From IMG/VR virus record IMGVR_UViG_3300005748_000015, positions 64,194 to 128,193 of that record: a DNA stretch of 64,000 nucleotides. The stretch is one strand, 5' to 3'. The DNA is from a virus. Each line of letters begins with the position of its first letter. The first letter of the stretch is position 1. Shown here piece after piece: positions 295 through 46,141 of the stretch. The translations under genes and the position numbers were made by a program. The notes under the pieces are model-generated. The model had not been told where the DNA came from. It saw only the letters and a list, made by a program, of their open reading frames with translations, and made no database searches.

Positions 295-941
295 TACAAC
301 TCCACAATTTTTAATAGATCATTATCTTGACCTACACTCATTAGGTTTGCTTGACTTGCTTTCTTCATAATATCACACAATCTAATGTATATTTCTTTTT
401 GCATATGAACATCATCCTTGGCTCGGTGGGCAGTACCCTTAGGTAGCCCAAAGTATTCGATAAGACTACTAATGCTACCAACATTTCCTGGCAACATATC
501 TAGCTCTTTAAGCCACGTAACTATTCCTGTAGTATCTAATGAGTTATGATTGATTCCACATTTTTTCATTTGACTTTCTGTAAGAAAACCTTGGATTTTC
601 ATAAAAGGAATATCAAAAGCTACAATGTTTTGCCCAAGGAATCTGTAGTGTTTTTGTTTTCTAGGAATTTTGTGGCGATTAAGCATTGCTATAAGCTTTT
701 CACGACCTTCTGTATACGTTATTGTGTCTGGATTGTCAAGATGTTCTTCGGGATTTATATCGGTAACTTTAAAAGCTTCTTTGGTTCCGTGTATTTTACC
801 CTCATCATTTTTTAAATACAAATGTAGGTCTTCTAATAAATTCCAATCTTTATCCCAGATTGCAAAATAAGCTTCGTTAATGGTGTGGTTAACCATATCA
901 AAGCCTCCTGTTTCTAGGTCAAAGCCTAAGTAATGTGCCAT
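294..941 (-). CDS. DEDDh 3'-5' exonuclease (DnaQ/RNase T-like)
   Basis: ExoI FDLETGG, ExoII QNIVAFD, ExoIII HRAKDD. Confidence 0.85.
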   Translation of the reverse strand: MAHYLGFDLETGGFDMVNHTINEAYFAIWDKDWNLLEDLHLYLKNDEGKIHGTKEAFKVTDINPEEHLDNPDTITYTEGREKLIAMLNRHKIPRKQKHYRFLGQNIVAFDIPFMKIQGFLTESQMKKCGINHNSLDTTGIVTWLKELDMLPGNVGSISSLIEYFGLPKGTAHRAKDDVHMQKEIYIRLCDIMKKASQANLMSVGQDNDLLKIVEL

Positions 942-1132
942 TATTTCACCTCGTAATCATCGTAATAAACTGGTTTTACTTCTGTTAATATTTCTATTCC
1001 TATAATCTGGCCGTCCTTATCAAAGTCTATACAAATACCATTACCCATATCTTTGGTTGTAAGTGGCTTCATTTTTTCTTTAAATTCTTTAACACTTAGA
1101 TAACTGGCATAATTTCCTATTTTTAATTGCAT
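941..1132 (-). CDS. DUF2283-like small protein
   Basis: Pattern xYL...GICIDFDKDGQIIGIEIL is typical of DUF2283. Confidence 0.65.
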   Translation of the reverse strand: MQLKIGNYASYLSVKEFKEKMKPLTTKDMGNGICIDFDKDGQIIGIEILTEVKPVYYDDYEVK

Positions 1133-1149
1133 AATACCCCTATAAAAAA

Positions 1150-1240
1150 TGGTGGGGGCTTAGGTTGTACATTATTAGTCGCTAAACCGAATGCCCCATG
1201 CTACCATACGTTTTACGCATTTGTGTATGGATGCCCCCTT
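1150..1240 (-). ncRNA. tRNA-like small RNA with acceptor-like stem and encoded ACCA end
   Basis: 5' GGGGGC pairs with 3' GCCCCC-A-CCA; internal stems CCATAC/GTATGG and GGTT/AACC; own promoter upstream and a T-run downstream. Confidence 0.55.
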
Positions 1241-1246
1241 GTTTAT

Positions 1247-1275
1247 ATAGTATCATATAAAGAAAGCGACCTCAA
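1247..1275 (-). promoter_or_regulatory. sigma70-type promoter for the small RNA
   Basis: TTGAGG-17 nt-TACTAT with extended TG. Confidence 0.7.
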
Positions 1276-1287
1276 GTAAAAGGTCGC
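1259..1287 (-). terminator. intrinsic terminator
   Basis: GCGACCT/AGGTCGC 7-bp stem followed by TTTCTTT. Confidence 0.7.
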
Positions 1288-1320
1288 CAAAAGAGATAAA
1301 ATGTTTAATTTATTTTTTAG

Positions 1321-1530
1321 CTAAACGCCAAGATTATTTTTTAATTTTTGAATTGCTGACTGATAAGTTTCTTCAACCTCTTCCTCAGTCATATTAAGAA
1401 CTTTGGCAATTGTATGAATTTCAACGCCTTCAGGATATTTTTCTATAAGTTTGGATAGACTATTTTTGAATTTTGGGTAATCTATAAAATCTTCGTCATT
1501 TAATATTTTATGCTTTTTTTCGTTTTTCAT
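1321..1530 (-). CDS. small HTH protein, sigma region-4-like
   Basis: IAKVLNMTEEEVEETYQSAIQKLK; ATG at 1530 preferred over the ORF-track start. Confidence 0.6.
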   Translation of the reverse strand: MKNEKKHKILNDEDFIDYPKFKNSLSKLIEKYPEGVEIHTIAKVLNMTEEEVEETYQSAIQKLKNNLGV

Positions 1531-1924
1531 GTGGAAACTCCAATACATTATTTTCAAATTGTAATCTATAAGCCCTTTCAAATCTTTCCATTTCTTCTTT
1601 GTGAAACATTTCTTTTCTTATTAGCATTTGCTCAAGTGGCTGAACTTTTTGCCTGTAATATTTTACTCTAGTTTCAACTAATTTTTTTTGCTGTTTTATT
1701 TTTTTAAATTCATTTAAAGAAACAGCGGCTTTTGTGTTATGTAAAAAATCTATATTCTCTTCTATTTTTTTTAACATTATTTTATTATATTCAAGTTCGT
1801 TTTTAAACCGTTCAAGGTCCTTGGAGATCATACAAAGTTCCAGCTCCATTCCTAAAATTTTACTTCTTAACTGTTTAACTTCCCTCGTTTCCTTCACCCT
1901 CGTCAATCCTTCTTCTAAAGCCAC
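1508..1924 (-). CDS. coiled-coil hypothetical protein
   Basis: 138-aa ORF with heptad-like pattern. Confidence 0.6.
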   Translation of the reverse strand: MALEEGLTRVKETREVKQLRSKILGMELELCMISKDLERFKNELEYNKIMLKKIEENIDFLHNTKAAVSLNEFKKIKQQKKLVETRVKYYRQKVQPLEQMLIRKEMFHKEEMERFERAYRLQFENNVLEFPHEKRKKA

Positions 1925-17541: not shown

Positions 17542-18569
17542 AAGTCTACTCCTTTAAGTTTAATAATTTTTCTTTCTATTATTTTTAAATTTTTACATTG
17601 AACTAATACGTTTTTTAACAAATCTGCTTTTTCTATAGTTGATTCCACTATGTTTTCTTCTTCAAAATAAGTATCATATACTGAAAAACCTTCTTCATCA
17701 ATTTCTGTTTCAACACTTTTCATATCCGAACCATTTAATAAATTTTCAAGCTCATACATTTCTAGCTGTCTTTTATCATCATTATCTTTTAAATAACCAT
17801 TGATTGCATCTAATAATACTTCTGAATCTTCAATTTTTTCACGACTTTTTAACAAGTTAGCTTTGTATATAATTTTTTTATCTGATGGATAATAGTGGAG
17901 TGAAGTTTGATTGTACAATTCCATAATGTTACTTTTCATACGACCAATACAAACACTTCTAAATACAGTCCTAAAAGGCCCTACCCATTTGTCTACCCCA
18001 ATACACAAGCCTGACATTGAAGCGTTAATCATATCCATTAATGTAAGATGGCTTTTAGGTACGGCTTTATAAAATTTCATAGCCTCATTGATAGCAAGCG
18101 GCATACTATTTTCAATTATTTTTTGCCTTATATATTGATGTTCATTCCAATTTTTTAAAGCTTTAGCTGGTAGATTACCTCTCCAATTTTCAATTACAAA
18201 TTTCATAAACTTGTAATTTATATTAAAATCTTTAATTCTTTGAACATCATCTTTTTTAAAAGCTGGCGATATATATGTACCAAATGTTTTAGAATCCTCT
18301 CTAAAAAAAGGCCTAGCTGTTAAAATATTTCCACGTTCAATTTTAATATACATTAAAAATTTTTGATATATCTTATCGCTTTGTTTGTAGGAGTTTATAT
18401 TTTTTTTAAAGTTTTTTTCTAGCTCCATCATGCGTTCAACTTGAGCTTTTTGTTGTGCAGTAAATTCTTTTCTAGTAAGTTTTTTACCATTATTATTATC
18501 TTTCAATATCTTGGCAATGCCGTTGGCCAAGTTATAAAAAACTGGATCGTTAACTTTTTTTCTTGCCAT
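17538..18569 (-). CDS. phage sigma-70-like RNA polymerase sigma factor
   Basis: Region-2-like KIIENSMPLAINEAMKFY...MDMINASMSGLCIGVDKW. Confidence 0.7.
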   Translation of the reverse strand: MARKKVNDPVFYNLANGIAKILKDNNNGKKLTRKEFTAQQKAQVERMMELEKNFKKNINSYKQSDKIYQKFLMYIKIERGNILTARPFFREDSKTFGTYISPAFKKDDVQRIKDFNINYKFMKFVIENWRGNLPAKALKNWNEHQYIRQKIIENSMPLAINEAMKFYKAVPKSHLTLMDMINASMSGLCIGVDKWVGPFRTVFRSVCIGRMKSNIMELYNQTSLHYYPSDKKIIYKANLLKSREKIEDSEVLLDAINGYLKDNDDKRQLEMYELENLLNGSDMKSVETEIDEEGFSVYDTYFEEENIVESTIEKADLLKNVLVQCKNLKIIERKIIKLKGVDL

Positions 18570-21127
18570 TAATTTACCTTAATATATTTTATATTTTTAT
18601 CTGTTTCTTTGTACATTTTTATTCTTTTGTTTAAGTGAGACTCCATAAGAGGCACGTTAGTTATTTTAAAATCATAAATTTTAGAAAAAGGTTTTGGCTT
18701 GTGTAAGTCTGCATACTCACTATTTTCTAAAATTCTTACACTTCTTCCTACAGCACCTTGTTTGGTTCTTACTTCAGAACTACCGCCTACCCAATTTACT
18801 GTATTGTGCGTACAATAAATATTTGTTCCCGTTGCAATACAGCTTGTACCAATTAAAACCTTTACTACTCCACGATTAAAAGCCTCAACAGTTTCATCGA
18901 CCTTTTTAGTTTGAAGGCCAAATTTAGTAGCATCTGCTTTTGATGCAGAGTGAACGTATTCATATGGAACATCCAATCTGTCAGTTAACATTTTGATTTG
19001 CTCTAACTCTTCCACTAAAATTAAAGTTGATTCTTGAGAGTATTTCCAAGCACCATTAGCAATTTTAGCTGTAATATCAGCAATGTTTGAATTGTACAAG
19101 AATTGTTTTCTTTTGGCTTTTAGTGGGTCTTTGTATTTTTTTGAATCCTTACTTATAGTTTCAAACACAAAAAATTTAACAGGACAAATATACCCACCAT
19201 CAACCGCTTCTTTAGTTGACAGCTCATGAACTTTCTTGCCAATGATGGCCTCTAAAAGTTTATCCTTACCATCCCCTCTAACCTGAGTGCCTGAAAGAAA
19301 AAATCTATAAGGAACATTTTTAAGTACTCCATGAAAAGTGGCTTCAAGGGTATTTGCAGCATTTAGATGGCTCTCGTCACTAATGATAACATCTGCATTT
19401 GCAAAAAAATCATATTCAGGCGTACCTTCCTTAAGCATTGTCAAAGATTTTGATACGCACACTGTAAACTTTTTTCCAATCTTTTTCTTACCAGCTCCGT
19501 AAGCACCGACATGGGTTTTGCCGAAGTGGTATTCAAACTTTTTGAGCATCTCTAAAAAAATAGATTTACTTGGTGTTACAATGACAGTATTTAATCCAAG
19601 TTCACGAGCGAGTGTCAATATAATAGCTGTTTTACCTGAATTATGAGTTACAGTAAAGTCATCCATTACGTACAAATTATCGCTATCTACTTCAAAACCA
19701 AAATACTCATCTTCTGGAAGTTCCTCTACTTTAAAACCAGTTCTTAATACACTTTTTATTTGTTTTCTTTTTTTAGCCTTTTTTCTTTCTAGTAAAACTG
19801 GTATTCTATCTATATCTCCAGATATAGTAACTCTGTAATAAACACCCTCAGTTCCATTTTGACTTTTCTTTTTTTCTTCTTTCTGATATGCGGCAAAACC
19901 CAAAGACCTAGCTACAAAAAGTATATCATCGGATAGATTTTTATTTTTTTGGGTAATTTCATAATAGTTGTTACCTAAATAACCATCTGAATCAATTAAT
20001 CCTGCTAGTATTTTTAGTCTTTTTTCTTCGGAATTTACTTTAAAATCTTCTGGAATATGTTTGTTAAGTATTAAGCTGTAATGTTTTAGATTATTTCTTA
20101 ACACATTAAAACCCTTACCTCTTAATGGACTGTACATGTAAAGTGTTTTTGCTAGATTTTTTTCCGATATTTCCTCTTCTCTTATATTTAACCCTAATTG
20201 TTTTGCGTATTTAACCCATTCTTTTTTTAGCTCCTTATCCATCGTGGTCAGTGATGGCCCATCTGAGTTTCCATCTCCAAGCCATAATCCTAATATATAT
20301 GGGTCAATTGCGGTTAATTTTTCTTCAAAAACAACACCTGTTCTATATAGTTTGTATCTGTGTTTAAACGACTTCGTTTGTTTTAAATAGTCTTTAACAG
20401 AAATGTTTACAATTGGGTTTGTTCCCTTAAAATCTTTTCTTCTTTTTTTATCTTCAACTCTGTATTGTGATCGATTGTTTGTTCTTTGTAATGACAAAAT
20501 ATGCCCCATATTTACAACAAAAGACTCGCCCTTAACTGGAATTATTTTTGCCATTTTTTCTTTACCCCTGTGTAGTTTTAGTACCTTACGAGGTTTTGAA
20601 TCTGACCCCATTAACAAATCTCCAACAACAACATTTTCCACTTTTTTTAAGGAGCCGTCATACATTAATATTTTTTGACCTTTTGCGTGACACCCTGTAC
20701 ATAACTCTACACACCCATGTTTTGCCTCTATCAATTTTTCAACTGATTGCTTTTGGTACGGATACAACTCAAATGAAAGTGGTTTCCTCCAGGCTATCTT
20801 GCGAGACTCAGGATAGTTTATTTTTTCAAGCTCTTCAAAGCTAAACCCTTGTAAATAGGGAATAGAACCCGGATGAAAAAAATGACTATTCTCTTGATGA
20901 TCATATTTTAACATACAAGTTGATAATTTTTTTTCAAGTTCTTGCTTTCTTTTTCTAAATGTATCAGGGTAATTTAGCTGTAACCACTTGTTTTCTTTGA
21001 GTTTTTTTAAATTAAAAGCTACAGAGGTATCGCTATACGTCAACTCTTTACACAAGAGATTTAGCGTACTTGAGTCGCATTCTTCTATTAAGGTTTTTGT
21101 TGGTGATACTGTTTTAATCTTTATCAT
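18569..21127 (-). CDS. SF2 DNA helicase (UvsW-like) containing an intein
   Basis: Q motif LYPYQ, spliced Walker A CTG|SGKT, DESH, SGT, QGAVGRSVR; start moved to ATG 21127. Confidence 0.9.
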   Translation of the reverse strand: MIKIKTVSPTKTLIEECDSSTLNLLCKELTYSDTSVAFNLKKLKENKWLQLNYPDTFRKRKQELEKKLSTCMLKYDHQENSHFFHPGSIPYLQGFSFEELEKINYPESRKIAWRKPLSFELYPYQKQSVEKLIEAKHGCVELCTGCHAKGQKILMYDGSLKKVENVVVGDLLMGSDSKPRKVLKLHRGKEKMAKIIPVKGESFVVNMGHILSLQRTNNRSQYRVEDKKRRKDFKGTNPIVNISVKDYLKQTKSFKHRYKLYRTGVVFEEKLTAIDPYILGLWLGDGNSDGPSLTTMDKELKKEWVKYAKQLGLNIREEEISEKNLAKTLYMYSPLRGKGFNVLRNNLKHYSLILNKHIPEDFKVNSEEKRLKILAGLIDSDGYLGNNYYEITQKNKNLSDDILFVARSLGFAAYQKEEKKKSQNGTEGVYYRVTISGDIDRIPVLLERKKAKKRKQIKSVLRTGFKVEELPEDEYFGFEVDSDNLYVMDDFTVTHNSGKTAIILTLARELGLNTVIVTPSKSIFLEMLKKFEYHFGKTHVGAYGAGKKKIGKKFTVCVSKSLTMLKEGTPEYDFFANADVIISDESHLNAANTLEATFHGVLKNVPYRFFLSGTQVRGDGKDKLLEAIIGKKVHELSTKEAVDGGYICPVKFFVFETISKDSKKYKDPLKAKRKQFLYNSNIADITAKIANGAWKYSQESTLILVEELEQIKMLTDRLDVPYEYVHSASKADATKFGLQTKKVDETVEAFNRGVVKVLIGTSCIATGTNIYCTHNTVNWVGGSSEVRTKQGAVGRSVRILENSEYADLHKPKPFSKIYDFKITNVPLMESHLNKRIKMYKETDKNIKYIKVN
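19640..20692 (-). mobile_element. intein with LAGLIDADG endonuclease, 351 aa, in helicase Walker A
   Basis: Starts CHAKGQKILM, contains LGLWLGDG and LAGLIDSDG, ends VTHN before Ser+1. Confidence 0.95.
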
Positions 21128-21160
21128 ATAACTATATAGTATCACACAAAAAGTAAAAAA

Positions 21161-22105
21161 ATGATAAAAAAGCCCAAACAGATTAAGAAAGAATTGGATA
21201 AGTATGTTATTGGACAAGATGATGCTAAAAAAAAGTTAAGCGTGGCTGCTTATAATCATTTAAAAAGAATAAAAGGTCAAAAATGTAAAAAAAATAATTT
21301 ACTTTTTATTGGGCCTACTGGGTGTGGAAAAACCTACATGGTTTCAAAATTATCTAAAATAATAGACACTCCTTTTTTAACTGTAGACGCTACTAGTTTT
21401 ACCTCTGCTGGATATGAAGGTAGAAGTGTTGAAGAAATTGTTACAGATTTAATATTTATTTGTGAAGATAATCAAAAAAAAGCTGAAAAATCAATAGTTT
21501 ACATAGATGAAATTGACAAGGTTAGAAAAAATAATAAAGATTCAGATGTCAATGGTGCTGGTGTGCAACAATCTTTGCTTAAATTAATAGAAGGGTTTGA
21601 GGTATCTTACGCTTCTAAAAAATCAAAAAATGGCGAGTGTGACAGTAAGTTTGATACTAAAAATATTTTGTTTATATGCTCTGGAGCTTTTGAAGGTTTG
21701 GAAAATTTTGATACAAAATCACTAATAGAATTTGGTATGATGCCAGAATTTTTAGGTAGATTTTCTTCGGTAAGTAAGCTGGAAAAATTAAACAAGGAAG
21801 ACTATAAACAAATATTGTTGCATTCAAAAGATTCTATTTTGGTAGATTTTAAAAACTGGTTTAAAAGTGAAAACTGCGAACTGGTAGTATCAGATGATGC
21901 TATTAATTTTATAGCAGAAAAGGCTGAACAAAAAGGCTTGGGAGCACGAGGCTTACATGGCATCTTAGATGATATTTTTTTAGACATACAATTTGAATTA
22001 CCCAGTATGCTGATAAAACCTCATTTTTTTCTACTAGACAAAGAGGCTATTGAAAAAAACAAACTAAAAAAAGGGTATAGAAAAAATGAAAACTTACAAG
22101 TATAG
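21161..22105 (+). CDS. clpX: ClpX-like AAA+ ATPase lacking the Zn-binding domain and IGF loop
   Basis: VIGQDDAKK, GPTGCGKT, IDEIDK, GVQQSLLKLIEG, PEFLGR, GARGL. Confidence 0.88.
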   Translation: MIKKPKQIKKELDKYVIGQDDAKKKLSVAAYNHLKRIKGQKCKKNNLLFIGPTGCGKTYMVSKLSKIIDTPFLTVDATSFTSAGYEGRSVEEIVTDLIFICEDNQKKAEKSIVYIDEIDKVRKNNKDSDVNGAGVQQSLLKLIEGFEVSYASKKSKNGECDSKFDTKNILFICSGAFEGLENFDTKSLIEFGMMPEFLGRFSSVSKLEKLNKEDYKQILLHSKDSILVDFKNWFKSENCELVVSDDAINFIAEKAEQKGLGARGLHGILDDIFLDIQFELPSMLIKPHFFLLDKEAIEKNKLKKGYRKNENLQV

Positions 22106-27294: not shown

Positions 27295-30288
27295 CTATAT
27301 ATCCCAGACAATTCCTTTTTTCTTGCCTGATTTCAAAGTGTTAACTGTTTTATTACCTGTTAAGTCATTAATTTTATTTTGCAGGGTTCTTGGGTTGCCT
27401 TTAATATTCTCTAAATCGTATGAAAACAATACCTTAGAACCACGTCCAAACATGCTGTGATGAAAATACCGTATCATATCCATGATATCAGCTACTCCAT
27501 CTTTCCCATGCTCAGGCTTGCCATCAATAGGGTTTCCCTTCCCATCAAGTTTTAATTTATAAGTTTCAAAAGAATCAAATACACGCTCGTTATTACGTGT
27601 TTTCAATACTTTAAAATGTCTATTATTATTAGCATCTACAATCTTAGCTTTAACAGCAGTAATTCCATCGATTACAGAGTCAGGCCCTTTCTTAACGCCA
27701 ATAGCTGGAATCTTGCCATATACTGTGTCTGTTTTTCTAAGCATCTTTATATATGCTGGATAGTTGGAATCACAAAACCATTTTTGAACTTTATATATTT
27801 CCGTTAATTCTTTAAGTTTTTCTTTAATTTCAGGTATTTCCATGCCTGGAGCTGCTGTCATATCAATTAGCCATGCCTTTCCACCAGCTATTTTTACAAA
27901 CACTCCTATTGCAGTTTCATCTGTATCACCCCAATCGGCAGCACCATAAAATTCAATACCAAGATTATGCATGTACTGAACTAATTCATCTAGTGTTTTG
28001 TTCTCAATCTTGTCACCTGACAAATACTCCCAAGCTTCGTCAATACCAATGGCATTTTGAACCGAGCAGAATCTAGGATAAACAAGTCCTGATGAACTAG
28101 GTTTGTTGCACAACAATTGTGCTTCGCCCATTTCTGGAGAGGTCTGTTTAAAGTTATTGTGAACAGCAAATATTGGCTTGTAAAGATTTCCAAAATCACC
28201 TTGAGGTCTATCTACCAACCAATTATGCATAACAGAAAGCATGGGATGTTCTGCAATCCCAGCATAAGCTTCAATTGCTTTATACTTATCTCTTGACTCT
28301 TCATTTATCTCGGCAAATTCTTCTGGCGATAAATTTTGCAAAGGAAGCTCTCGTGAAATATATCTTAATACCTTTTCTTCGTTAGTTCTAGCTTCTACAT
28401 TTGTAAGCCTTTCTGTAACATCAATAATATTCCAACGTAAAACTTCACCGCCAGATCGCTCTGTATCTTTGAGAGTTTTTTCCATTAACCCCCCTGCATA
28501 CTTTCTAGTAGATAAATACACAGTTAATGGAAAATAATTTTTATAAACTGAAGGAATCATTTTAGCTTCTTCCAACGCTCTTGGGTCTTGAACAACGTCA
28601 ATCTCATCCATAAAAAGCATAGGTACATGCTCAGAATTATGTACCAAAACACCATTAGCATAAAAGCTTTTTTGATGCTCATTGTTTGTATCGACTTGTA
28701 TATCTATAAGTTCTTGTTTTCCTATTAGTTCTATTTTTTCAATAGTTGTATTTAAATTATTTTTAATCGATTTTCTTAAATTTCTGCCGTATTTTAAATT
28801 GGACAAAGAACTATTGCTCCATGTAAAACCGGATGAAGGTTCTGTTTTTAACACAATATTTCCGGTATCTATTTCTCTTGTAAATTGAGAATGCTCTAAA
28901 GGAGGCAATAATTTGTACTTTAAACAGTTTGAAAAATAAGGTCTTATAACTGTTGACAATTCTCTTGATGAATTTTTTGATAATTTTACACCTGTATATT
29001 TGTCTTTTTTCCACAAAGAAGCCTCAAAACCATATTCTTTAAATTTATCAACTAACATCATATTTTCTTCTTTAGAAAAATTAAAAGTAGATATTTTAAT
29101 ACCTTGACTTTTGTGAACTCCAATTTTCTTAGAATTTACCGTACCATCATCCATTATTAAATAAGAAAAAGATTCTGGAGTCAACAATTTAATCCATTCT
29201 TTTGTTAATATTTTTTTGCCATTAATGTGAGTTATACTACTAATGTTTTTAAAAAAGTCATGACATTGAGTAGTTAATTTAAATTGATTATTTTTATCTT
29301 CACAAATGTTACAATGTATTCCATTAATTTCAAAAATATTTTTTGTATCATTTAGGTATTCTAATTGATCTTTTGTGTGGCTTACTTGAAACCTAACAGA
29401 ACCGCTAGGTAAAAAATTCAAAGAAGCATCACCCAACAATTGACCTAATACCATCTGATCAAGTCTTTTATCTATATCCAAAGAAAAAACTTCTTGTTTA
29501 CAATTTGTACCCTTAGTTTTTTCTTCCGTATGCAATTTATATCCTACCCTTAATTGGTCGGCAGTAATCCAACCTCTTTGAGTAAAAACCTGATGGTCAT
29601 CAGACAATATAAGCTCTGCTCCATTACTCAATATTATTTTTCTAGCTTCTTTTATAGTATAGCCAATTTTTTTGATAGGATTAAATACTTGTTTTTCTTG
29701 AATATAATCGTAAGTTTTTATAACATCCTCAACAAGTACATCTTTAGCTAATAAAACTCCCCTATCAGTGTCTACAAAAGCATATGGGGAAATACAATTC
29801 ATTCCAGCGACCGTAGCAACAACAATTCTAAGATAAATAGCATCGCCTTTGTCGGTAAGCCATTCAATCTTAGCTTTACTATCTGAAATCTTTTTCCAAT
29901 TGTTTTCTTCTAAATATGGACCTACTTTTCTAAAAAAAGAGTTGACATATTGAATTGCTTTTTCTGATTGCGATTTAATTGCCGCACCGTGAGCAACAGA
30001 GATTTCAAAATGAATCATACACAAAACTTCAATAGCAGCAGCTGATAGAGTCTTATAAGAGTCCCTTGATGCTAACATACAAACTTGTGGAACATCTCTA
30101 CTTCCACCAGTTTTCATAAGATTATAAATACGCCACATAGCATCTATAGGGCCGTGCGTAGAACCGGGGTAAACGACACCCATTGGAAATTTTATATCCA
30201 AATAAGTGTACATCCAATCCTGTAATTCCTGAGCACTATTAAGTGGTTTTAGGATTAGGTCTGCTTTAAGCTTTTCTAATTCATCCAT
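27295..30288 (-). CDS. terL: terminase large subunit containing an intein
   Basis: ASRDSYKT Walker A variant, LFMDEID Walker B, RNase H-like DWG...DIMDMIRY; next to portal. Confidence 0.88.
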   Translation of the reverse strand: MDELEKLKADLILKPLNSAQELQDWMYTYLDIKFPMGVVYPGSTHGPIDAMWRIYNLMKTGGSRDVPQVCMLASRDSYKTLSAAAIEVLCMIHFEISVAHGAAIKSQSEKAIQYVNSFFRKVGPYLEENNWKKISDSKAKIEWLTDKGDAIYLRIVVATVAGMNCISPYAFVDTDRGVLLAKDVLVEDVIKTYDYIQEKQVFNPIKKIGYTIKEARKIILSNGAELILSDDHQVFTQRGWITADQLRVGYKLHTEEKTKGTNCKQEVFSLDIDKRLDQMVLGQLLGDASLNFLPSGSVRFQVSHTKDQLEYLNDTKNIFEINGIHCNICEDKNNQFKLTTQCHDFFKNISSITHINGKKILTKEWIKLLTPESFSYLIMDDGTVNSKKIGVHKSQGIKISTFNFSKEENMMLVDKFKEYGFEASLWKKDKYTGVKLSKNSSRELSTVIRPYFSNCLKYKLLPPLEHSQFTREIDTGNIVLKTEPSSGFTWSNSSLSNLKYGRNLRKSIKNNLNTTIEKIELIGKQELIDIQVDTNNEHQKSFYANGVLVHNSEHVPMLFMDEIDVVQDPRALEEAKMIPSVYKNYFPLTVYLSTRKYAGGLMEKTLKDTERSGGEVLRWNIIDVTERLTNVEARTNEEKVLRYISRELPLQNLSPEEFAEINEESRDKYKAIEAYAGIAEHPMLSVMHNWLVDRPQGDFGNLYKPIFAVHNNFKQTSPEMGEAQLLCNKPSSSGLVYPRFCSVQNAIGIDEAWEYLSGDKIENKTLDELVQYMHNLGIEFYGAADWGDTDETAIGVFVKIAGGKAWLIDMTAAPGMEIPEIKEKLKELTEIYKVQKWFCDSNYPAYIKMLRKTDTVYGKIPAIGVKKGPDSVIDGITAVKAKIVDANNNRHFKVLKTRNNERVFDSFETYKLKLDGKGNPIDGKPEHGKDGVADIMDMIRYFHHSMFGRGSKVLFSYDLENIKGNPRTLQNKINDLTGNKTVNTLKSGKKKGIVWDI
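28636..29796 (-). mobile_element. intein with LAGLIDADG endonuclease, 387 aa, in terminase
   Basis: Starts CISPYAFV, SDDH block B, GQLLGDA and LIMDDG, ends LVHN before Ser+1. Confidence 0.93.
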
Positions 30289-30297
30289 TTTTTATTA

Positions 30298-33039
30298 TTA
30301 AGCCCTTATGTTAGCTTCGTTTATATATTCATCAGCATGATCAACAGCTCGTCTAAAATCTTGCTCTTCTTTCCACGCTTGTAATTCTAACTGGTTATCT
30401 CGTGGGCTGGCAATAATACCACCAAGATTACCCATAACACTTGCAATAGATACACTATTTTCTAATGCCTGAATAACGGCTTGAGAAGCATCAAAAATCC
30501 CAAGCTCTTCAGGACTACCAAATTCCATATTTTCAATATCGTAAACTTTAGTGGTGTTTTGAAAATAATCAGTGTAAATCTTGTCAATTTCTTCTTCTGT
30601 ATACCCAGCATTGCCCAATAACTTAGCAAGCGGCTCCATTAGACTTGGTATGAGAACTTGAGTTACAAGATTGTAATCTCTGTTATCTTCGTCATAATCT
30701 GAGTGCAATTTCATACAAAGATTTACTAAGACTCTACAGCCGCCCGGTAATGCTCCGTGTTTGATTGTACTTCTAACGGCACACACAGCATCTTCACATC
30801 TATCATGCCTTTCTTTAAGCTCACCATTAGATGCACCATAGATTTTAAGTTTAGCAATACCGTTTGTAAGTTTTCCAAGTCTTTCTTCAAGATCAAGTTT
30901 TTCGGCAATACTTGCTGCATTTGATAATTGAATCTCAAGCTCTTCAGCTCTCTCTTCAATGTTAAGCTCGTTTGGCTCACCGACTACTGTAGCTCTAAAC
31001 CTATAGTATTCAAATATTTCCATATCTGAGCCAAGGTCTTCAAGTGTAGCGTTTGATACTTGATTGGTCATATCAAAAATTTTAGCCCCAGTAAATGCGG
31101 CTAAATCATGAAGAAATTCAAGTCTTGAATTTTTAATATTTGTCATTGGAGTTGCCACAGGTACAACATTTAATGTAGTAGGATTTGAAAAGTTAAACGC
31201 CAAGTTAGTAAGTACATTTTCAGAAAAGCCGTGTGATACAAGAACTAGATTGCTGAATTCTGAATTACCTTCGTTAACATATTTTTCTCCTAAAGCCTCA
31301 ATTAAAGGCAAAAAAGAAACAAGATCATTAACTATACCATCAAACAAAAGAAATAATGGCTTATCTAACTTACATCGTTGGTTAGCTTTATCATTAATAA
31401 ATGCAGTATTAAACTTACCAATGGACTCTTCGTATCCAATAGCTATTGGCAAACCTTCAATAAGCTCCACCTCATACCCACCTGGGCCAGATAGCTCTTG
31501 AATTGTAACATGAGAAGACTCTCCAAACCCTACTTTTTCAAAAGCATCCATAACTGCTTCTGCCATTTCTTCATCACCATTAGCAGATACTTGTGCAACT
31601 TTTTTTAGTAAATGTTGATTTTCAAGGTCAATTTGTATTGCCTGTTCTTTTACAGCAGGAATCAATTGTTTTTTTATAATTTTATTTAAGACCCTAGTAG
31701 ATCGTTGAGGCGACTCTTTGGGGTTATTCTTACAATACTCAAAAAGACTTTTAACCAGAGTGGCTGAGATAATAGTAGTGGCAGTTGTATTGTGCGTAGT
31801 AATAAAGTTATCTGTGATATATAGATGGTTTTTATTGCTAACTTTAATACATTGCATTTCTACTTCTTTATCTGTTTTGATTACGTCTACGATTTTATCT
31901 CCAAATTTATACCCCTTTAATTGTGTAATTCTATGAATAGGAGTGTCTGAATATGAATTTGGGTCATTTTCCCTAGTGTGTAATTTATAATTCACACTAA
32001 TACCCAGGCTTCTCACTAAAGTTAAGAAGTCTTGTGCAAGCTCATCACTAACAGTAGAATATTCAAATAGACCTCTAATGTTAATGTGCCCATCAGTAGC
32101 CAGTAACCCTTCTAACAAGGCTTTTCTGCTCTCGATTGAAGAGTACAAATATGACTTGGGAATAAATTTAGTGTGACTATTGCGGTTAGCTAACCCTAAA
32201 GCTCTAACACTATCTCTAACTTCTTTGAGTTTAACTCTTATATAGTTTTTTTCAAGTACATATTGGACATTTTTTACATATTTTTCTATTTTTTTAATTA
32301 CAGGCTCATCGTTTAGACTTAAAGCAAGTTCTACACTTCCTTTGTCACTCAAAGAACCATCTCCTAATAGTGCTCCAACAAGAAAGGGGTCTAATGGCAT
32401 TTCAGCTTTACATTCATCGAATTCAACAGGAGATTTAGGAGTGTAATATTCATATTGGATTTGCCCATTTGACTTAGTCCTGTAAATGCATTTGCTTATT
32501 TCCTCTGTAGTAATAACCTTTTCGGTACCATTGTTTGTTGTTACATTCCATAGATGATCAGGGCAACACTCTACTTTTCTACCATCTGAAAAAATAACTG
32601 TATAGAGTTTTTTCTTTCCCTTAGGAAAAACCCCTTCTACTGTTTGAATAGTTCCGTTAGTACCGCACACTTCCATTCCTATTTCAACATCTCCCATCTC
32701 AATAAAACCTGTCGGTGTTAAAACCTTTGCTGTCAAAGGTTGAGGGCCGTCACCAGCTTCACTAGCCGTTCTTTGGGCGGCATCTCTAGTTTGCTCAATA
32801 ATCAAATGCTTAAATGGATCAGAAGACCCTAAGCTCTTGAAAATAGTAACACCATCTTTTGTATTTTTATTAGGAATTCCAGGGTATTCACTCTCAATAA
32901 GCGTTGTTTTACCACCTGGTCCATAGCTAGAGCCTACAATCTCTGCAACCTCATCCATAGTAATAGATGTAATTCTTTGAAGCTTGTCAGGGTCAGAACA
33001 ATACATCTTAGCTGGTGTTTTAACCTTTTTAACTGTCAT
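30298..33039 (-). CDS. groEL: GroEL-like chaperonin containing an intein
   Basis: SYGPGG, TKDGVT, AGDG|TTATT, SANGD, ERLGKL, EDAVCA, PGGC. Confidence 0.92.
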   Translation of the reverse strand: MTVKKVKTPAKMYCSDPDKLQRITSITMDEVAEIVGSSYGPGGKTTLIESEYPGIPNKNTKDGVTIFKSLGSSDPFKHLIIEQTRDAAQRTASEAGDGPQPLTAKVLTPTGFIEMGDVEIGMEVCGTNGTIQTVEGVFPKGKKKLYTVIFSDGRKVECCPDHLWNVTTNNGTEKVITTEEISKCIYRTKSNGQIQYEYYTPKSPVEFDECKAEMPLDPFLVGALLGDGSLSDKGSVELALSLNDEPVIKKIEKYVKNVQYVLEKNYIRVKLKEVRDSVRALGLANRNSHTKFIPKSYLYSSIESRKALLEGLLATDGHINIRGLFEYSTVSDELAQDFLTLVRSLGISVNYKLHTRENDPNSYSDTPIHRITQLKGYKFGDKIVDVIKTDKEVEMQCIKVSNKNHLYITDNFITTHNTTATTIISATLVKSLFEYCKNNPKESPQRSTRVLNKIIKKQLIPAVKEQAIQIDLENQHLLKKVAQVSANGDEEMAEAVMDAFEKVGFGESSHVTIQELSGPGGYEVELIEGLPIAIGYEESIGKFNTAFINDKANQRCKLDKPLFLLFDGIVNDLVSFLPLIEALGEKYVNEGNSEFSNLVLVSHGFSENVLTNLAFNFSNPTTLNVVPVATPMTNIKNSRLEFLHDLAAFTGAKIFDMTNQVSNATLEDLGSDMEIFEYYRFRATVVGEPNELNIEERAEELEIQLSNAASIAEKLDLEERLGKLTNGIAKLKIYGASNGELKERHDRCEDAVCAVRSTIKHGALPGGCRVLVNLCMKLHSDYDEDNRDYNLVTQVLIPSLMEPLAKLLGNAGYTEEEIDKIYTDYFQNTTKVYDIENMEFGSPEELGIFDASQAVIQALENSVSIASVMGNLGGIIASPRDNQLELQAWKEEQDFRRAVDHADEYINEANIRA
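31789..32745 (-). mobile_element. class-3-type intein with LAGLIDADG endonuclease, 319 aa, in GroEL
   Basis: Starts with Pro (PQPL); PDHLW (block B Trp), MQCI (block F Cys), YITD...THN before Thr+1; GALLGDG and GLLATDG. Confidence 0.9.
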
Positions 33040-42761: not shown

Positions 42762-43547
42762 TCATTGTTTTTCATATTTCTTTTTTAATTCAGGAAATAA
42801 TTCTCTTTCCCATACTTCTTGTATATATTTATAAGTTTCTTTTAATATTTTTTTTCCTGTAAACCCAGGATGTTCCCATTTATTACCTTTGTGTTTTGAC
42901 GATATAGTTCTAAATGTCATTATACTTCGCTCAACTCTACCCGTATTAGGATTTTGTTGTTGATAAACACTTACTCCTTGTAAGTTTCTAGAAAGATTTT
43001 GTACACTTTTCTTTTTTCCATCTCTCATACTTTTGATGTCAAAACTATGTATTCTTCCTATTCGTGGACTACCACTTTCATCTAACGCTAAAGCTCTTGT
43101 TTTACTATACCTCACATTTTGGGATTTTAAAAAATTTTTAAGCTCTTCTACTTCTGATTTTTTTTCAGAACTAGATTCAGGACTAGCTTTGGTAGAATGC
43201 TCAAAAGGTATAACCCTGTATTTATTACCTTCTTTGCTTGTTTTTGCTTTTGGTCCTTCTAATAATTCATCCATAAAGCCTTTTTTCCTACCATGTTCAA
43301 TCCAAAAGGCTTCTTCTCTAATCCCTACTTCTACTATAGTATCACTTAATTGTTCTATATAGATACTATCTCTGTATATTTTATCTAAACTTTTAGGTAA
43401 TTTTTGTTTAGACAATTCTTCTGCTTTTTTAACCGCTGTTTTACCTAATACTTGTACGGTTTTTTTTAAATCTTCTTCTAATTTTTTTTTAATTTTTTCT
43501 TTAACATTATCTAAAATATCAGAAGATTTTATATTTAACTTAAACAT
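42762..43547 (-). CDS. virion morphogenesis/neck protein
   Basis: WIEHG...YRVIPF...TFRTIS...WEHPG. Confidence 0.6.
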   Translation of the reverse strand: MFKLNIKSSDILDNVKEKIKKKLEEDLKKTVQVLGKTAVKKAEELSKQKLPKSLDKIYRDSIYIEQLSDTIVEVGIREEAFWIEHGRKKGFMDELLEGPKAKTSKEGNKYRVIPFEHSTKASPESSSEKKSEVEELKNFLKSQNVRYSKTRALALDESGSPRIGRIHSFDIKSMRDGKKKSVQNLSRNLQGVSVYQQQNPNTGRVERSIMTFRTISSKHKGNKWEHPGFTGKKILKETYKYIQEVWERELFPELKKKYEKQ

Positions 43548-46141
43548 TATACTTTTTCTACCTTAGCTGGTTTTACTTGCTTAGGTTTTTTGCTCTTAAC
43601 AGGACTTGAAGATTCTGCTGGTAAAATATTTCCATCAGGCCCTTTTGCACCACCAGCTGGCATTGATGTCATTATTTTCTTACCAGTTTCAGGGTCTTGC
43701 TGTACTATTTTTAACCCTACTTGTGCTCCTATTTCATGTTGAGGTTTAGACACGTGCGCTGTCGTTCTTTTTGTGCTTGTTGCTTGCCTACCCTTATTAC
43801 CACTTTTTATTGGAACTTCTTTTTTTTTTAAAAACTTAGCAAGCTTTTCAGACTTATAAATATGTTCAGATTGTTTCATTTCATCTTGTTTTATTTTATC
43901 TCTTCTTTCTTTAGCTTTTGCTTCATTTCGCTCTTGATCTACTGCACTATTAGGTCGCCATCCACTTTGTTTTCCATAATTAATTGAGGCATTTTGAGTT
44001 TTTGTATATACCTTTTTTTTAGTCCCTTGCTTTTGTCTTTCTCTTATTCCAAATTCAGGTCTGTCACCATTATTGTTACTTTCGCCAGCTCCCGGTAGTT
44101 TTGGTTTTATTTTTCTTTGTTCTTTTATTCTTGCATAGCCTTTAGCTTGACCTCTTGCTACAGCTCCATCTTTATCCTCGCCTTCTTTTCTTTTAAATTC
44201 CCCTGGCTTTGTATGAACACCTTTTTGTGCAAATTTACCAGTTTTTTTACTAAAACCTTTTTTTCTTTGTTTTCTAGCTTTTACTTTTTGCTCATCAGTT
44301 CTTTTAAAGTGCTCATCAACCCTACTAGCTTTAGAAAGTTCTTCAGACTTATCCATTGCCTTACCTTTTTCTTCATTTTTGCCACGGCAATTGAATTTTT
44401 TTCTAGCAGAACAAAGTGGAGAGTTTTTGTCTTCATTTGATCGGCAATCTTTTCCAGCAGCTCTCATTTTTTTATGAGACTTTGCACAAAAAGACCCATC
44501 ATTATCGCCTTTGTCATCGGTTTTTTTCTTTTTTTTGCCTAGAACTTTAGGTTTTTTTACGGATGAATTTTTCTTTTTAAAAACTTTTTTATTACCACCC
44601 TTTTTGGCAGCTTCTTTCTTTTTTTTTATTGCCTCTCTAATTTCTTGTATATTCTTAGGGTTGTCAGCTTTCATCATTTCAAAAGTCTTTTTCATTTTGT
44701 AAATAAGTTTGGTATACACTTCAGACTTTTGATACTCATCCACTTCCATTTCTTCAGGCATAACTTCTTGATCTTCCATTTCCGGCTCTTCAGCAGTTAA
44801 TTCTTCGGCAGCATCTCCATACCCAAGCTCTTTGGCCATTTCAATCATTGCTTGTAATGTATGAATTAGTGAGCTATATAGTTGAGGATTTTCTTGACCC
44901 ATAGCGTTTAAATATTCTCTGTTTTCTTTAAAAATATTTAAACTTTCATATATTACATTTTTTAAATCATCGTGATCTAAAGGTTGTTCTTCTCCAGACT
45001 CTTCTACAGGAGCTTCATCAGCACCCATTTCTTGTGCAATGGCTTGCTCTAACCCTTCATCATCTTCTAAAACTTCATCTCCGTAATCTCCAGAATCATC
45101 GTACTCTTCTTCCTCACCAGATTCAGCAGCCATAGCTTCTTCATGCTCTACATCGCCATCGCCATCAAGATCATCTTCTTCAGGATCAATTTGTCCGTGC
45201 TCTTCCACCATGTCAGGCTCGCCATCAAGATCAACATCTTCATAACCGTCTTCGTACTCATCTTCCTCTAAAGCTTCGTCTTCCTCTGCAATTTTTGCAG
45301 TTTCTTCTACTAACTCAGGATATTCTTCTTCCTTATCAGCTTCGACCAAATCATCATCTGTTTCATCTTCTCTATTTTCTTGAGCATCATGGACAAATTC
45401 TTCTTCTTCACTCATTTCTTTTTCATGTTCTGGTTGGCCTTCTTCCATTTCTTCAGAGCCATAGTCACCGTCAACTTCATCTGCTGGAACTTCTATCTCT
45501 TCAGTTTCTTCATCTTCAGCTTCATCTTCAGCTTCCATTTCTTCAAGATCAGAATAATAATCATCATCTTCAGCTAAATGATCAGTAGCAATTTCTTCAG
45601 CAACTTCTTCATCATCAGTATGTTCTTTTTCGTGCTCCGTGCCAGCTTCCAATTCATCTTGAGGTAACTCTTCTTCATCAACATCGTCACCAACCCCACC
45701 TTCTAATTGATCATCATCAGAAACTTCTTCTGATAAATTACCCGATATAGCTTGTTTCATTGCCGTTTCTATTTCTGGAGAGTAATCTGTAATCTGATCT
45801 TTGCCGTTAATTTTTGCATATATAAGAGCTTTTGCAGCTTCAGATATATTCTCACCTATACCAATAGATATAGAGAAGCCTGTTTTTTCTTGATATTTTT
45901 GTTTTAAATCTTCTAGCTCGTCAATACTAGCAACTGGAACTTGGAATATAGCTTCATCGCTACCACTACTTATTATTTTTCCACCATTATACTCTGCCCA
46001 TTGAGAAAAAATAGATACACCTGAATTTATATTGTTTGAAATAGAAGATAATTGATCTGTATCATTTGATAATACAGCATTACCTATACTTTCACCAACA
46101 TTGTCTGCATCAATAGCAACGTAAGTCATTTGCTCTTTCAT
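43547..46141 (-). CDS. mCpol-like nucleotide cyclase domain fused to acidic, DUF5661-like and basic modules
   Basis: YVAIDADNVG...SSGSDEA...SIGIG...ALIYAKINGK; GTEHEKEH...IATDHL...DYY module. Confidence 0.7.
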   Translation of the reverse strand: MKEQMTYVAIDADNVGESIGNAVLSNDTDQLSSISNNINSGVSIFSQWAEYNGGKIISSGSDEAIFQVPVASIDELEDLKQKYQEKTGFSISIGIGENISEAAKALIYAKINGKDQITDYSPEIETAMKQAISGNLSEEVSDDDQLEGGVGDDVDEEELPQDELEAGTEHEKEHTDDEEVAEEIATDHLAEDDDYYSDLEEMEAEDEAEDEETEEIEVPADEVDGDYGSEEMEEGQPEHEKEMSEEEEFVHDAQENREDETDDDLVEADKEEEYPELVEETAKIAEEDEALEEDEYEDGYEDVDLDGEPDMVEEHGQIDPEEDDLDGDGDVEHEEAMAAESGEEEEYDDSGDYGDEVLEDDEGLEQAIAQEMGADEAPVEESGEEQPLDHDDLKNVIYESLNIFKENREYLNAMGQENPQLYSSLIHTLQAMIEMAKELGYGDAAEELTAEEPEMEDQEVMPEEMEVDEYQKSEVYTKLIYKMKKTFEMMKADNPKNIQEIREAIKKKKEAAKKGGNKKVFKKKNSSVKKPKVLGKKKKKTDDKGDNDGSFCAKSHKKMRAAGKDCRSNEDKNSPLCSARKKFNCRGKNEEKGKAMDKSEELSKASRVDEHFKRTDEQKVKARKQRKKGFSKKTGKFAQKGVHTKPGEFKRKEGEDKDGAVARGQAKGYARIKEQRKIKPKLPGAGESNNNGDRPEFGIRERQKQGTKKKVYTKTQNASINYGKQSGWRPNSAVDQERNEAKAKERRDKIKQDEMKQSEHIYKSEKLAKFLKKKEVPIKSGNKGRQATSTKRTTAHVSKPQHEIGAQVGLKIVQQDPETGKKIMTSMPAGGAKGPDGNILPAESSSPVKSKKPKQVKPAKVEKV

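Follow-up and report, generated by a model that had tools for sequence, protein, structure and literature searches.

A candidate small structured RNA with a tRNA-type 3′ end in an exchangeable cassette of a marine phage

The 64,000-nucleotide stretch of viral DNA analyzed here (the window) carries on its minus strand an 89-nt GC-rich structured element, hereafter class A, which has homologues at the same place in two metagenome contigs (L028 and L024) and lies within a cassette that is swapped between close relatives. Our tentative reading, to which we give somewhat less than an even chance, is that class A is a cassette-borne small RNA with a three-way junction and a tRNA-style 3′ end, which doubles as the 5′ leader of an operon encoding a DUF2283 protein and an exonuclease. 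Class A would constitute a new and very small family of phage small structured RNAs or leaders, whose unusual conserved feature is the tRNA-type 3′ end; no earlier description of it was found in Rfam release 15, in GenBank phages, or in the literature on phage tRNA-like decoys and T4 stable RNAs. With three members, the family offers a lead and not yet an established result.

The window makes up the second half of an IMG/VR virus record of 128,193 bp with a G+C content of 33.3%, and the sequencing runs holding near-identical DNA indicate a marine origin. The closest cultured phage, on the basis of the portal protein, is Myxococcus phage Mx1 (46.8% identity), followed near 25% by a Xanthomonas phage and then by Bacillus phages; by this comparison the phage appears to be related to Mx1 and not to be of the T4 type. 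ARAGORN finds no tRNA or tmRNA gene in the window or in the whole 128-kb genome, and neither a CCA-adding enzyme nor RtcB was found in the record, which is estimated to be 80% complete. The features discussed below are collected in Table 1.

Table 1. Coordinates of the RNA, its boundary elements, the neighboring genes and related features (window positions unless a locus is named).
Feature	Position	Strand	Remarks
Class A structured RNA, 89 nt, GC-rich	1150..1238	-	
P1, closing stem GGGGGC / GCCCCC	1238-1233 with 1159-1154	-	
P2, CCATAC(15)GTATGG	1230-1225 with 1209-1204	-	
P3, weak, GGTT(18)AACC	1188-1185 with 1166-1163	-	
Single-stranded ACCA tail (predicted)	1153-1150	-	
T6 run after ACCA	1144..1149	-	In the window and L028, missing from L024
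Intrinsic terminator hairpin of the upstream small HTH-like gene	1265..1288	-	Sequence reading and terminator scan
Extended -10 TGATACTAT (TG + n + TACTAT)	1247..1255	-	TACTAT 1252-1247, TG 1255-1254
DUF2283 ORF, 63 aa	941..1132	-	PF10049, E 5.2e-08
DEDDh (DnaQ-like) exonuclease, 215 aa	294..941	-	Kept in relatives with and without the RNA
Small HTH-like gene	1321..1581	-	Likely true start ATG at 1530; HTH_69, E 0.0019, below family cut-off
Swappable cassette (RNA + DUF2283)	933..1243	-	X1 contig joint 932 to 1244
Class B RNA	L006:1656-1785, L022:120-250, L026:1394-1526		Further copies in L007, L008/L020, L023, L032
Intein/homing-endonuclease-bearing genes	18569-21217, 27295-30288, 30298-33039	-	

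Anatomy and promoter of the RNA

The first-pass annotation, made from the letters of the window alone, described a promoter-driven, tRNA-like unit, and all of the elements that it listed are present on the minus strand within and around an 89-nt unit (1238-1150). A TAA sits between the AACC of P3 and the GCCCCC of P1. The combination of a 6-bp closing stem with at least five G/C pairs, strands 60-110 nt apart, and a following ACCA occurs once in the 128-kb genome, as the class A element, compared with a mean of 0.03 in 30 Markov-1 simulated genomes. With no demand on stem composition, combinations of a stem and ACCA are common (16 observed versus about 20 simulated). The fold energy of the window element is unremarkable (z = -1.34, with 16 of 200 shuffles folding equally well), and the homologues give z = -2.29 (L028) and z = -2.09 (L024).

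In all three sequences, P1 is predicted with a pair probability of 0.97-1.0, the ACCA tail is paired at no more than 0.01, and the predicted folds show no alternative to the P1-closed structure. The 4-bp P3 stem is missing from the minimum free energy fold of the window element. On these models class A is a three-way junction and not tRNA-shaped. A pseudoknot between a loop ATGC and a downstream GCAT, also proposed earlier, is not upheld by the homologues, the counterpart being missing in both L028 and L024.

Class A resembles a tRNA, or the tRNA-like domain of tmRNA, in its 6-7 bp G-rich closing stem, its A discriminator, and its encoded and unpaired CCA followed by an AU-rich trailer, but it lacks the D, anticodon and T arms, as the first-pass annotation had seen, and has a three-way instead of a four-way junction. 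More specifically, the acceptor-type stem of 6 bp (window, L024) or 7 bp (L028) followed by ACCA corresponds to a tRNA acceptor. The helix that precedes the 3′ strand of P1, separated from it by 1-3 unpaired nucleotides, does not correspond to a T arm, since its loop in the window measures 18 nt and its L028 counterpart is an extended, bulged arm that greatly exceeds a T arm in length. The suggestion of a tRNA mimic thus holds for the closing helix with its single-stranded ACCA (three of three members) and fails for the rest of the molecule, which is a predicted three-way junction with neither a T-loop nor a 7-nt anticodon loop.

No canonical tRNA match had been expected, and both ARAGORN and Rfam are indeed silent. 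ARAGORN reports no tRNA or tmRNA in the three class A members at its default and 80% thresholds; lowering the threshold to 60% or switching to mitochondrial mode brings up inconsistent matches only, mostly on the opposite strand. None of the 4227 Rfam families matches the element at the gathering threshold, and at E values up to 10 nothing is found on its strand between positions 1050 and 1400, the tRNA, tmRNA and C4 models included; the RNAs of the relatives have no Rfam match at E values up to 1. The lack of any hit by ARAGORN -m or Rfam and the length of only 89-101 nt also speak against a tmRNA. P1 with the T run makes a poor canonical terminator because the four-nucleotide ACCA intervenes and L024 has no T run, and the terminator scan calls none here; the T6 run could be a leaky terminator tail or part of an AU-rich trailer. 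Regarding riboswitches, there is no match to a known family and no alternative fold is predicted, three sequences being too few to define a core.

The small HTH-like gene ends just upstream of a composite boundary, in which a -35-like TTGAGG (1275-1270) is embedded in the loop and 3′ arm of the terminator hairpin. The spacer between TTGAGG and TACTAT is 17 nt, and TACTAT is followed by ATAAAC (6 nt) and by AA at 1240-1239, where transcription probably starts, 7 nt past the -10 hexamer. Generic scans of the region lend no support, as promoter-like sites (17 versus 17.7 expected) and terminators (1 versus 1.3 expected) are both at chance. The promoter is nevertheless believable because TGATAYTAT recurs in 37 copies genome-wide, 23 of which have an ORF start within 41 nt. 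The copy upstream of class A has a 114-nt leader whose G+C content of 0.42 is the highest among 14 long leaders.

Among 23 related loci, 14 have the exact TGATACTAT 3′ of the HTH-like gene, along with a terminator, made up of a hairpin and a T run, in which a TTGAnn -35 is embedded; this layout recurs in the relatives with different stem sequences. The spacing of TACTAT, 6 nt and AAGGGG is the same in the window, L028 and L024. The sequence, the genome-wide promoter motif and the homologues together bear out a promoter-driven, non-coding, structured unit, as first proposed. We also observe a second promoter flavor on the plus strand of G000:C1 (4788, 16323, 19056, 30574), where a conserved AATCTTTAAA replaces the TTGACA-like -35 and the extended -10 is unchanged, which suggests a separate temporal class.

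Homologues and covariation

The three class A members share the order TACTAT, 6 nt, AAGGGG..., two internal hairpins, CCTAA, two variable positions (NN), CCCC and ACCA. Local alignment against shuffles gives z = 9.45 for the window and L028 and z = 5.63 for the window and L024. A covariance model (R1) built from L028 and L024 alone recovers the window element with 24 bits (E 2.5e-06 in 401 nt, 0.002 in 336 kb), and over 336 kb, made up of this phage's entire genome, a relative of 129 kb and 22 further loci, it finds nothing beyond the three known members.

Four G:C pairs of P1 are invariant, while pairs 5 and 6 are G:C and C:G in the window versus A:U and G:C in L028 and L024. The check for stem covariation in relatives, which had been called for, therefore comes out in favor of the element, with P1 pairing kept through two compensatory changes and the ACCA predicted to be unpaired in all three members. 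Over the whole alignment (A5), 92% of the cells pair, and in five pairs both partners have changed. The observed values are reached by just 1-2 of 500 column shuffles, and the paired share in slid controls is 39-50%. A5 was, however, aligned to the structure of the model, and this favors pairing. Between the lineages, conservation is highest in the last 17 nt at the 3′ end, which could also reflect recent shared descent. In each member the ACCA is followed by AU-rich single-stranded sequence, which includes a U run in two of the three. L024 and L028 show 3 differences in their first 60 nt, and as their 5′ parts are nearly identical the three members represent effectively two independent lineages. 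Taken as sequences, they indicate that class A is a real though tiny RNA family.

Wider searches did not enlarge it. The stem-to-ACCA pattern has no match in IMG/VR, and blastn of the element against GenBank phages gives none. The pattern AAGGGG...CCTAANNCCCCACCA has 8 matches, all in one coding gene and without stem complementarity, and the promoter followed by AAGGGG...CCACCA has 2, both in coding or ribosome-binding-site contexts. The 3′-end pattern occurs in at least 118 stretches; among the 80 matches examined, none has a 6-bp upstream complement, and the lone 5-bp complement belongs to an ordinary terminator. Searching the genome contigs with the exonuclease profile revealed no further loci, and the HTH-profile scan gave 7 loci, of which the 1 new locus has no RNA slot. 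L024 carries a second GC-rich element (1613-1745) between its class A RNA and a small membrane-protein ORF, which consists of about 100 nt closed by a AAGGTGGC ... GCCACC helix and has a fold z of -1.17.

The cassette slot and its contents

The DUF2283 ORF has a GGGG-type ribosome-binding site at 1141-1136 and no promoter of its own, and would depend on read-through of the RNA. DUF2283 is described as a domain of FseA, an activator of the excision of integrative and conjugative elements, with weak similarity to the antiactivator QseM (PMC4755241), and the phage protein may be a small transcription regulator or antiactivator. The exonuclease ORF, which also lacks its own promoter, matches the generic exonuclease family RNase_T of Pfam, PHROG 192 ("DNA polymerase exonuclease subunit") and, weakly, a PolC-type PDB chain. 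A functional tie between this nuclease and the RNA, suggested earlier from the kinship with RNase T, is weakened by its DnaQ-like character, by the generic nature of the family match and by its identical position in relatives without the RNA. Its relatives form 69 protein clusters in metagenomes, and tblastn against GenBank phages returns zero matches. The HTH-like protein, of about 69 aa with a helix-turn-helix-like segment at its C-terminal end, is encoded upstream of the slot in all relatives.

We compared public contigs with positions 600-1900 of the window. An 8.5-kb DNA contig from run X1 has near-identical flanks, with positions 933-1243 replaced by 996 other bases; the replacement ends three bases past the -10 on one side and nine bases inside the exonuclease ORF on the other. 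A 19-kb DNA contig from run X2 is 98% identical over the compared region and has an unchanged element. Only 1 of its 27 differences falls inside 936-1324, so that the cassette and promoter region are far less diverged than the flanking genes, which suggests a recent exchange. RNA-library contigs from X7 and X16 cover 600-935 and 1325-1900 only, and the divergence of the X7 contig at 1325 points to another strain.

Profile-guided scans gave 12 viral and 19 metagenome loci, of which L012 and L013 are distant relatives only, and the upstream regions were compared in 23. In L022, L026 and the L006 group the same slot is taken by class B, an unrelated structured RNA some 135 nt long that brings a terminator hairpin of its own; the L006 group comprises six loci, including one contig counted twice (L008 and L020), and also has a second promoter. 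A third sequence occupies the slot in L019, and a short one that in L025. The remaining nine related loci (L009, L010, L011, L018, L021, L027, L029, L031, L034) lack a structured RNA after the HTH-like gene; in six of these the promoter lies directly before the exonuclease, and in L009, L018 and L021 another gene lies between. The ORF behind the RNA is DUF2283 after class A in the window and after class B in the L006 group, and a small membrane protein in L028 and L024, so that the pairings cross the RNA classes and RNA and downstream ORF assort independently.

Class B has a long AU-rich closing helix plus internal hairpins, no Rfam match, and compensatory changes in 9 of 36 predicted pairs (5 sequences from 3 lineages). 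Uniting classes A and B into one superfamily was rejected, their short shared motifs notwithstanding, as alignment z values of -0.75 to 1.62 are at shuffle level.

The class A RNA is cargo. At least three unrelated RNAs use one slot, and structured RNAs thereby appear as exchangeable cargo beside small proteins in the hypervariable early cassettes of large marine phages. The boundary is reminiscent of PeSL (promoter-early stem-loop), small composite terminator/promoter motifs reported as sites of cassette exchange in T4-type phages (PMC4122927), which bound the exchange of unrelated cassettes between close relatives (PMC4122927, PMC2839356). Here too, the terminator hairpin (1288-1265) overlaps the -35 and the X1 swap begins at 1243, just past the -10. 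The present phage differs in not being of the T4 type, and what these reports set out about PeSL concerns a boundary and not a structured RNA cargo.

Possible roles of the RNA

If the RNA doubles as a leader, as we tentatively prefer, host RNA polymerase would initiate at the AA directly upstream of P1, and the first ~90 nt would adopt a three-way junction whose closing helix, 6-7 bp long and G/C-rich, leaves the ACCA single-stranded. The 3′ end might form just past ACCA by leaky termination at the U run or, alternatively, by a cut in the AU-rich trailer and exonuclease trimming halted at the stem-CCA, as for CCA-encoding tRNA precursors. The expected products are a stable RNA of ~91-95 nt and, for the downstream genes, an mRNA that arises by read-through or processing. 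As the likely working surface for a host or phage partner we propose the conserved unpaired parts, which are the junction linking hairpins 2 and 3, the hairpin 3 loop and the UAA before the 3′ strand.

RNase T is halted by a stem-CC. In the E. coli model for tRNA precursors, RNase E cuts 1-3 nt past the encoded CCA and exonucleolytic trimming follows (PMC2190699). The ACCA and AU-rich trailer of class A reproduce the layout of a CCA-encoding tRNA precursor, and by analogy the tRNA-like part may be a device for 3′-end maturation and stability. A similar case is that of t-elements, tRNA-like signals for processing at the ends of mRNAs (PMC1920247). Like them, class A is a partial tRNA look-alike within a longer transcript that could set RNA ends via tRNA processing, although t-elements are known from plant mitochondria and archaea, and for class A such processing is putative. 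If expressed with a CCA end, the RNA would exemplify, in compact and natural form, how a phage can take only the 3′-end features of a tRNA, and these borrowed features could serve RNA stability or interfere with enzymes that read tRNA ends.

It is rather unlikely that class A is a purely cis-acting leader, i.e. an attenuator, riboswitch or translational switch in which the state of P1 sets termination at the U run or the C-rich 3′ strand hides the downstream ribosome-binding site. The downstream genes without their own promoter would fit such a role, as would the position of P1, ACCA and U run 8-12 nt upstream of the ribosome-binding site in the window and L028. Moreover, mutual complementarity extends over both strands of P1 and the ribosome-binding site, and from one lineage to the other all three have changed in step (5′ strand, 3′ strand and ribosome-binding site being GGGGGC / GCCCCC / AGGGGT in the window versus GGGGAG / CTCCCC / AGGAGA in L028). 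Nevertheless, L024 lacks the U run and has its ORF start ~130 nt farther, behind the second structured element, the near-complete pairing predicted for P1 meets no competing fold, the known riboswitch families in Rfam give no match, and the downstream ORF varies among the members, from DUF2283 to the small membrane protein.

Even less probable, in our view, is that class A mimics the acceptor end of a tRNA without decoding, as a decoy or sponge for host or defence proteins reading tRNA 3′ ends, with RNase P, the CCA-adding enzyme, synthetases and acceptor-end-modifying toxins as candidate readers. Its strongest form, in which marine Mx1-like phages trade between strains a purpose-built acceptor-end mimic whose primary transcript starts at the stem and is matured to CCA by the host tRNA 3′-end machinery, is equally improbable. 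In favor of a mimic, all three members combine a 6-7 bp stem of the G1:C72 type, with compensatory changes, with an A discriminator and an unpaired CCA; conservation between lineages peaks in the 3′ 17 nt, and transcription probably starts 0-2 nt before the stem. The 3:70 position underlies the alanine tRNA identity rule, but in class A it is G:C and the alanine identity element is missing. The absence of T arm and T-loop, D arm and anticodon arm, the silence of ARAGORN and of the tRNA and tmRNA models of Rfam, and the long helix adjoining P1 in L028 also argue against such a mimic, as does a 128-kb record without tRNA genes, CCA-adding enzyme or RtcB. The cassette, swappable and presumably early, is a place where anti-host genes would be expected, and toxins acting on tRNA acceptor ends exist, as described for MenT (PMC7450476). 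A true mimic would have tRNA-grade stability and would soak up a host factor or defence toxin recognizing tRNA 3′ ends, making the element an RNA-only anti-host cassette.

We consider it very unlikely that class A is a functionless GC-rich remnant hitchhiking with the cassette, its ACCA inherited by accident. A family of just three known members, absent from most relatives, is what such a remnant would predict, but P1 is kept by compensatory changes across lineages whose neighboring exonucleases are only 67-75% identical, and a GC-rich island is unusual for a genome with 33% G+C. The element is also unchanged in the X2 strain, where 0 differences in 95 positions are not significant alone.

The last and least probable possibility is a C4-type antisense regulator, whose closing stem would present two loops pairing with phage or host mRNA, as in P1/P7 immunity. 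The C4 RNA of these phages, ascribed to Hartmann (1995), is reportedly an operon-head small RNA whose terminal stem presents hairpin loops. Class A likewise lies next to its promoter and ahead of the genes of its operon, and it has a closing stem with an RCCA-like end and two hairpin loops. C4 RNA is listed among RNase P substrates (PMC11143913). Unlike C4, class A gives no match to the Rfam C4 model in sequence or structure and no complementary target was found, as neither duplex energies nor exact genome matches exceed chance: the best antisense duplexes with the downstream 300-450 nt are at shuffle level (reached by 93, 83 and 85 of 200 shuffles), and elsewhere in the genome there are three exact matches of 11-12 nt, against about five expected by simple arithmetic.

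Some other features of the genome may be recorded here. Hint and LAGLIDADG (intein or homing-endonuclease) domains lie inside three large minus-strand genes, encoding a helicase, the large terminase and a Cpn60/GroEL-like chaperonin (Table 1). The minus-strand gene at 43547-46141 of the window encodes an 864-aa protein with an N-terminal minimal CRISPR polymerase (mCpol) domain and DUF5661. In the first genome half, outside the window, G000:C1:1889-2206 is non-coding, reaches a G+C content of 64% and contains short direct repeats of the CACAGCCTCT type, and a further GC-rich non-coding stretch is found at G000:C1 55155-55236.
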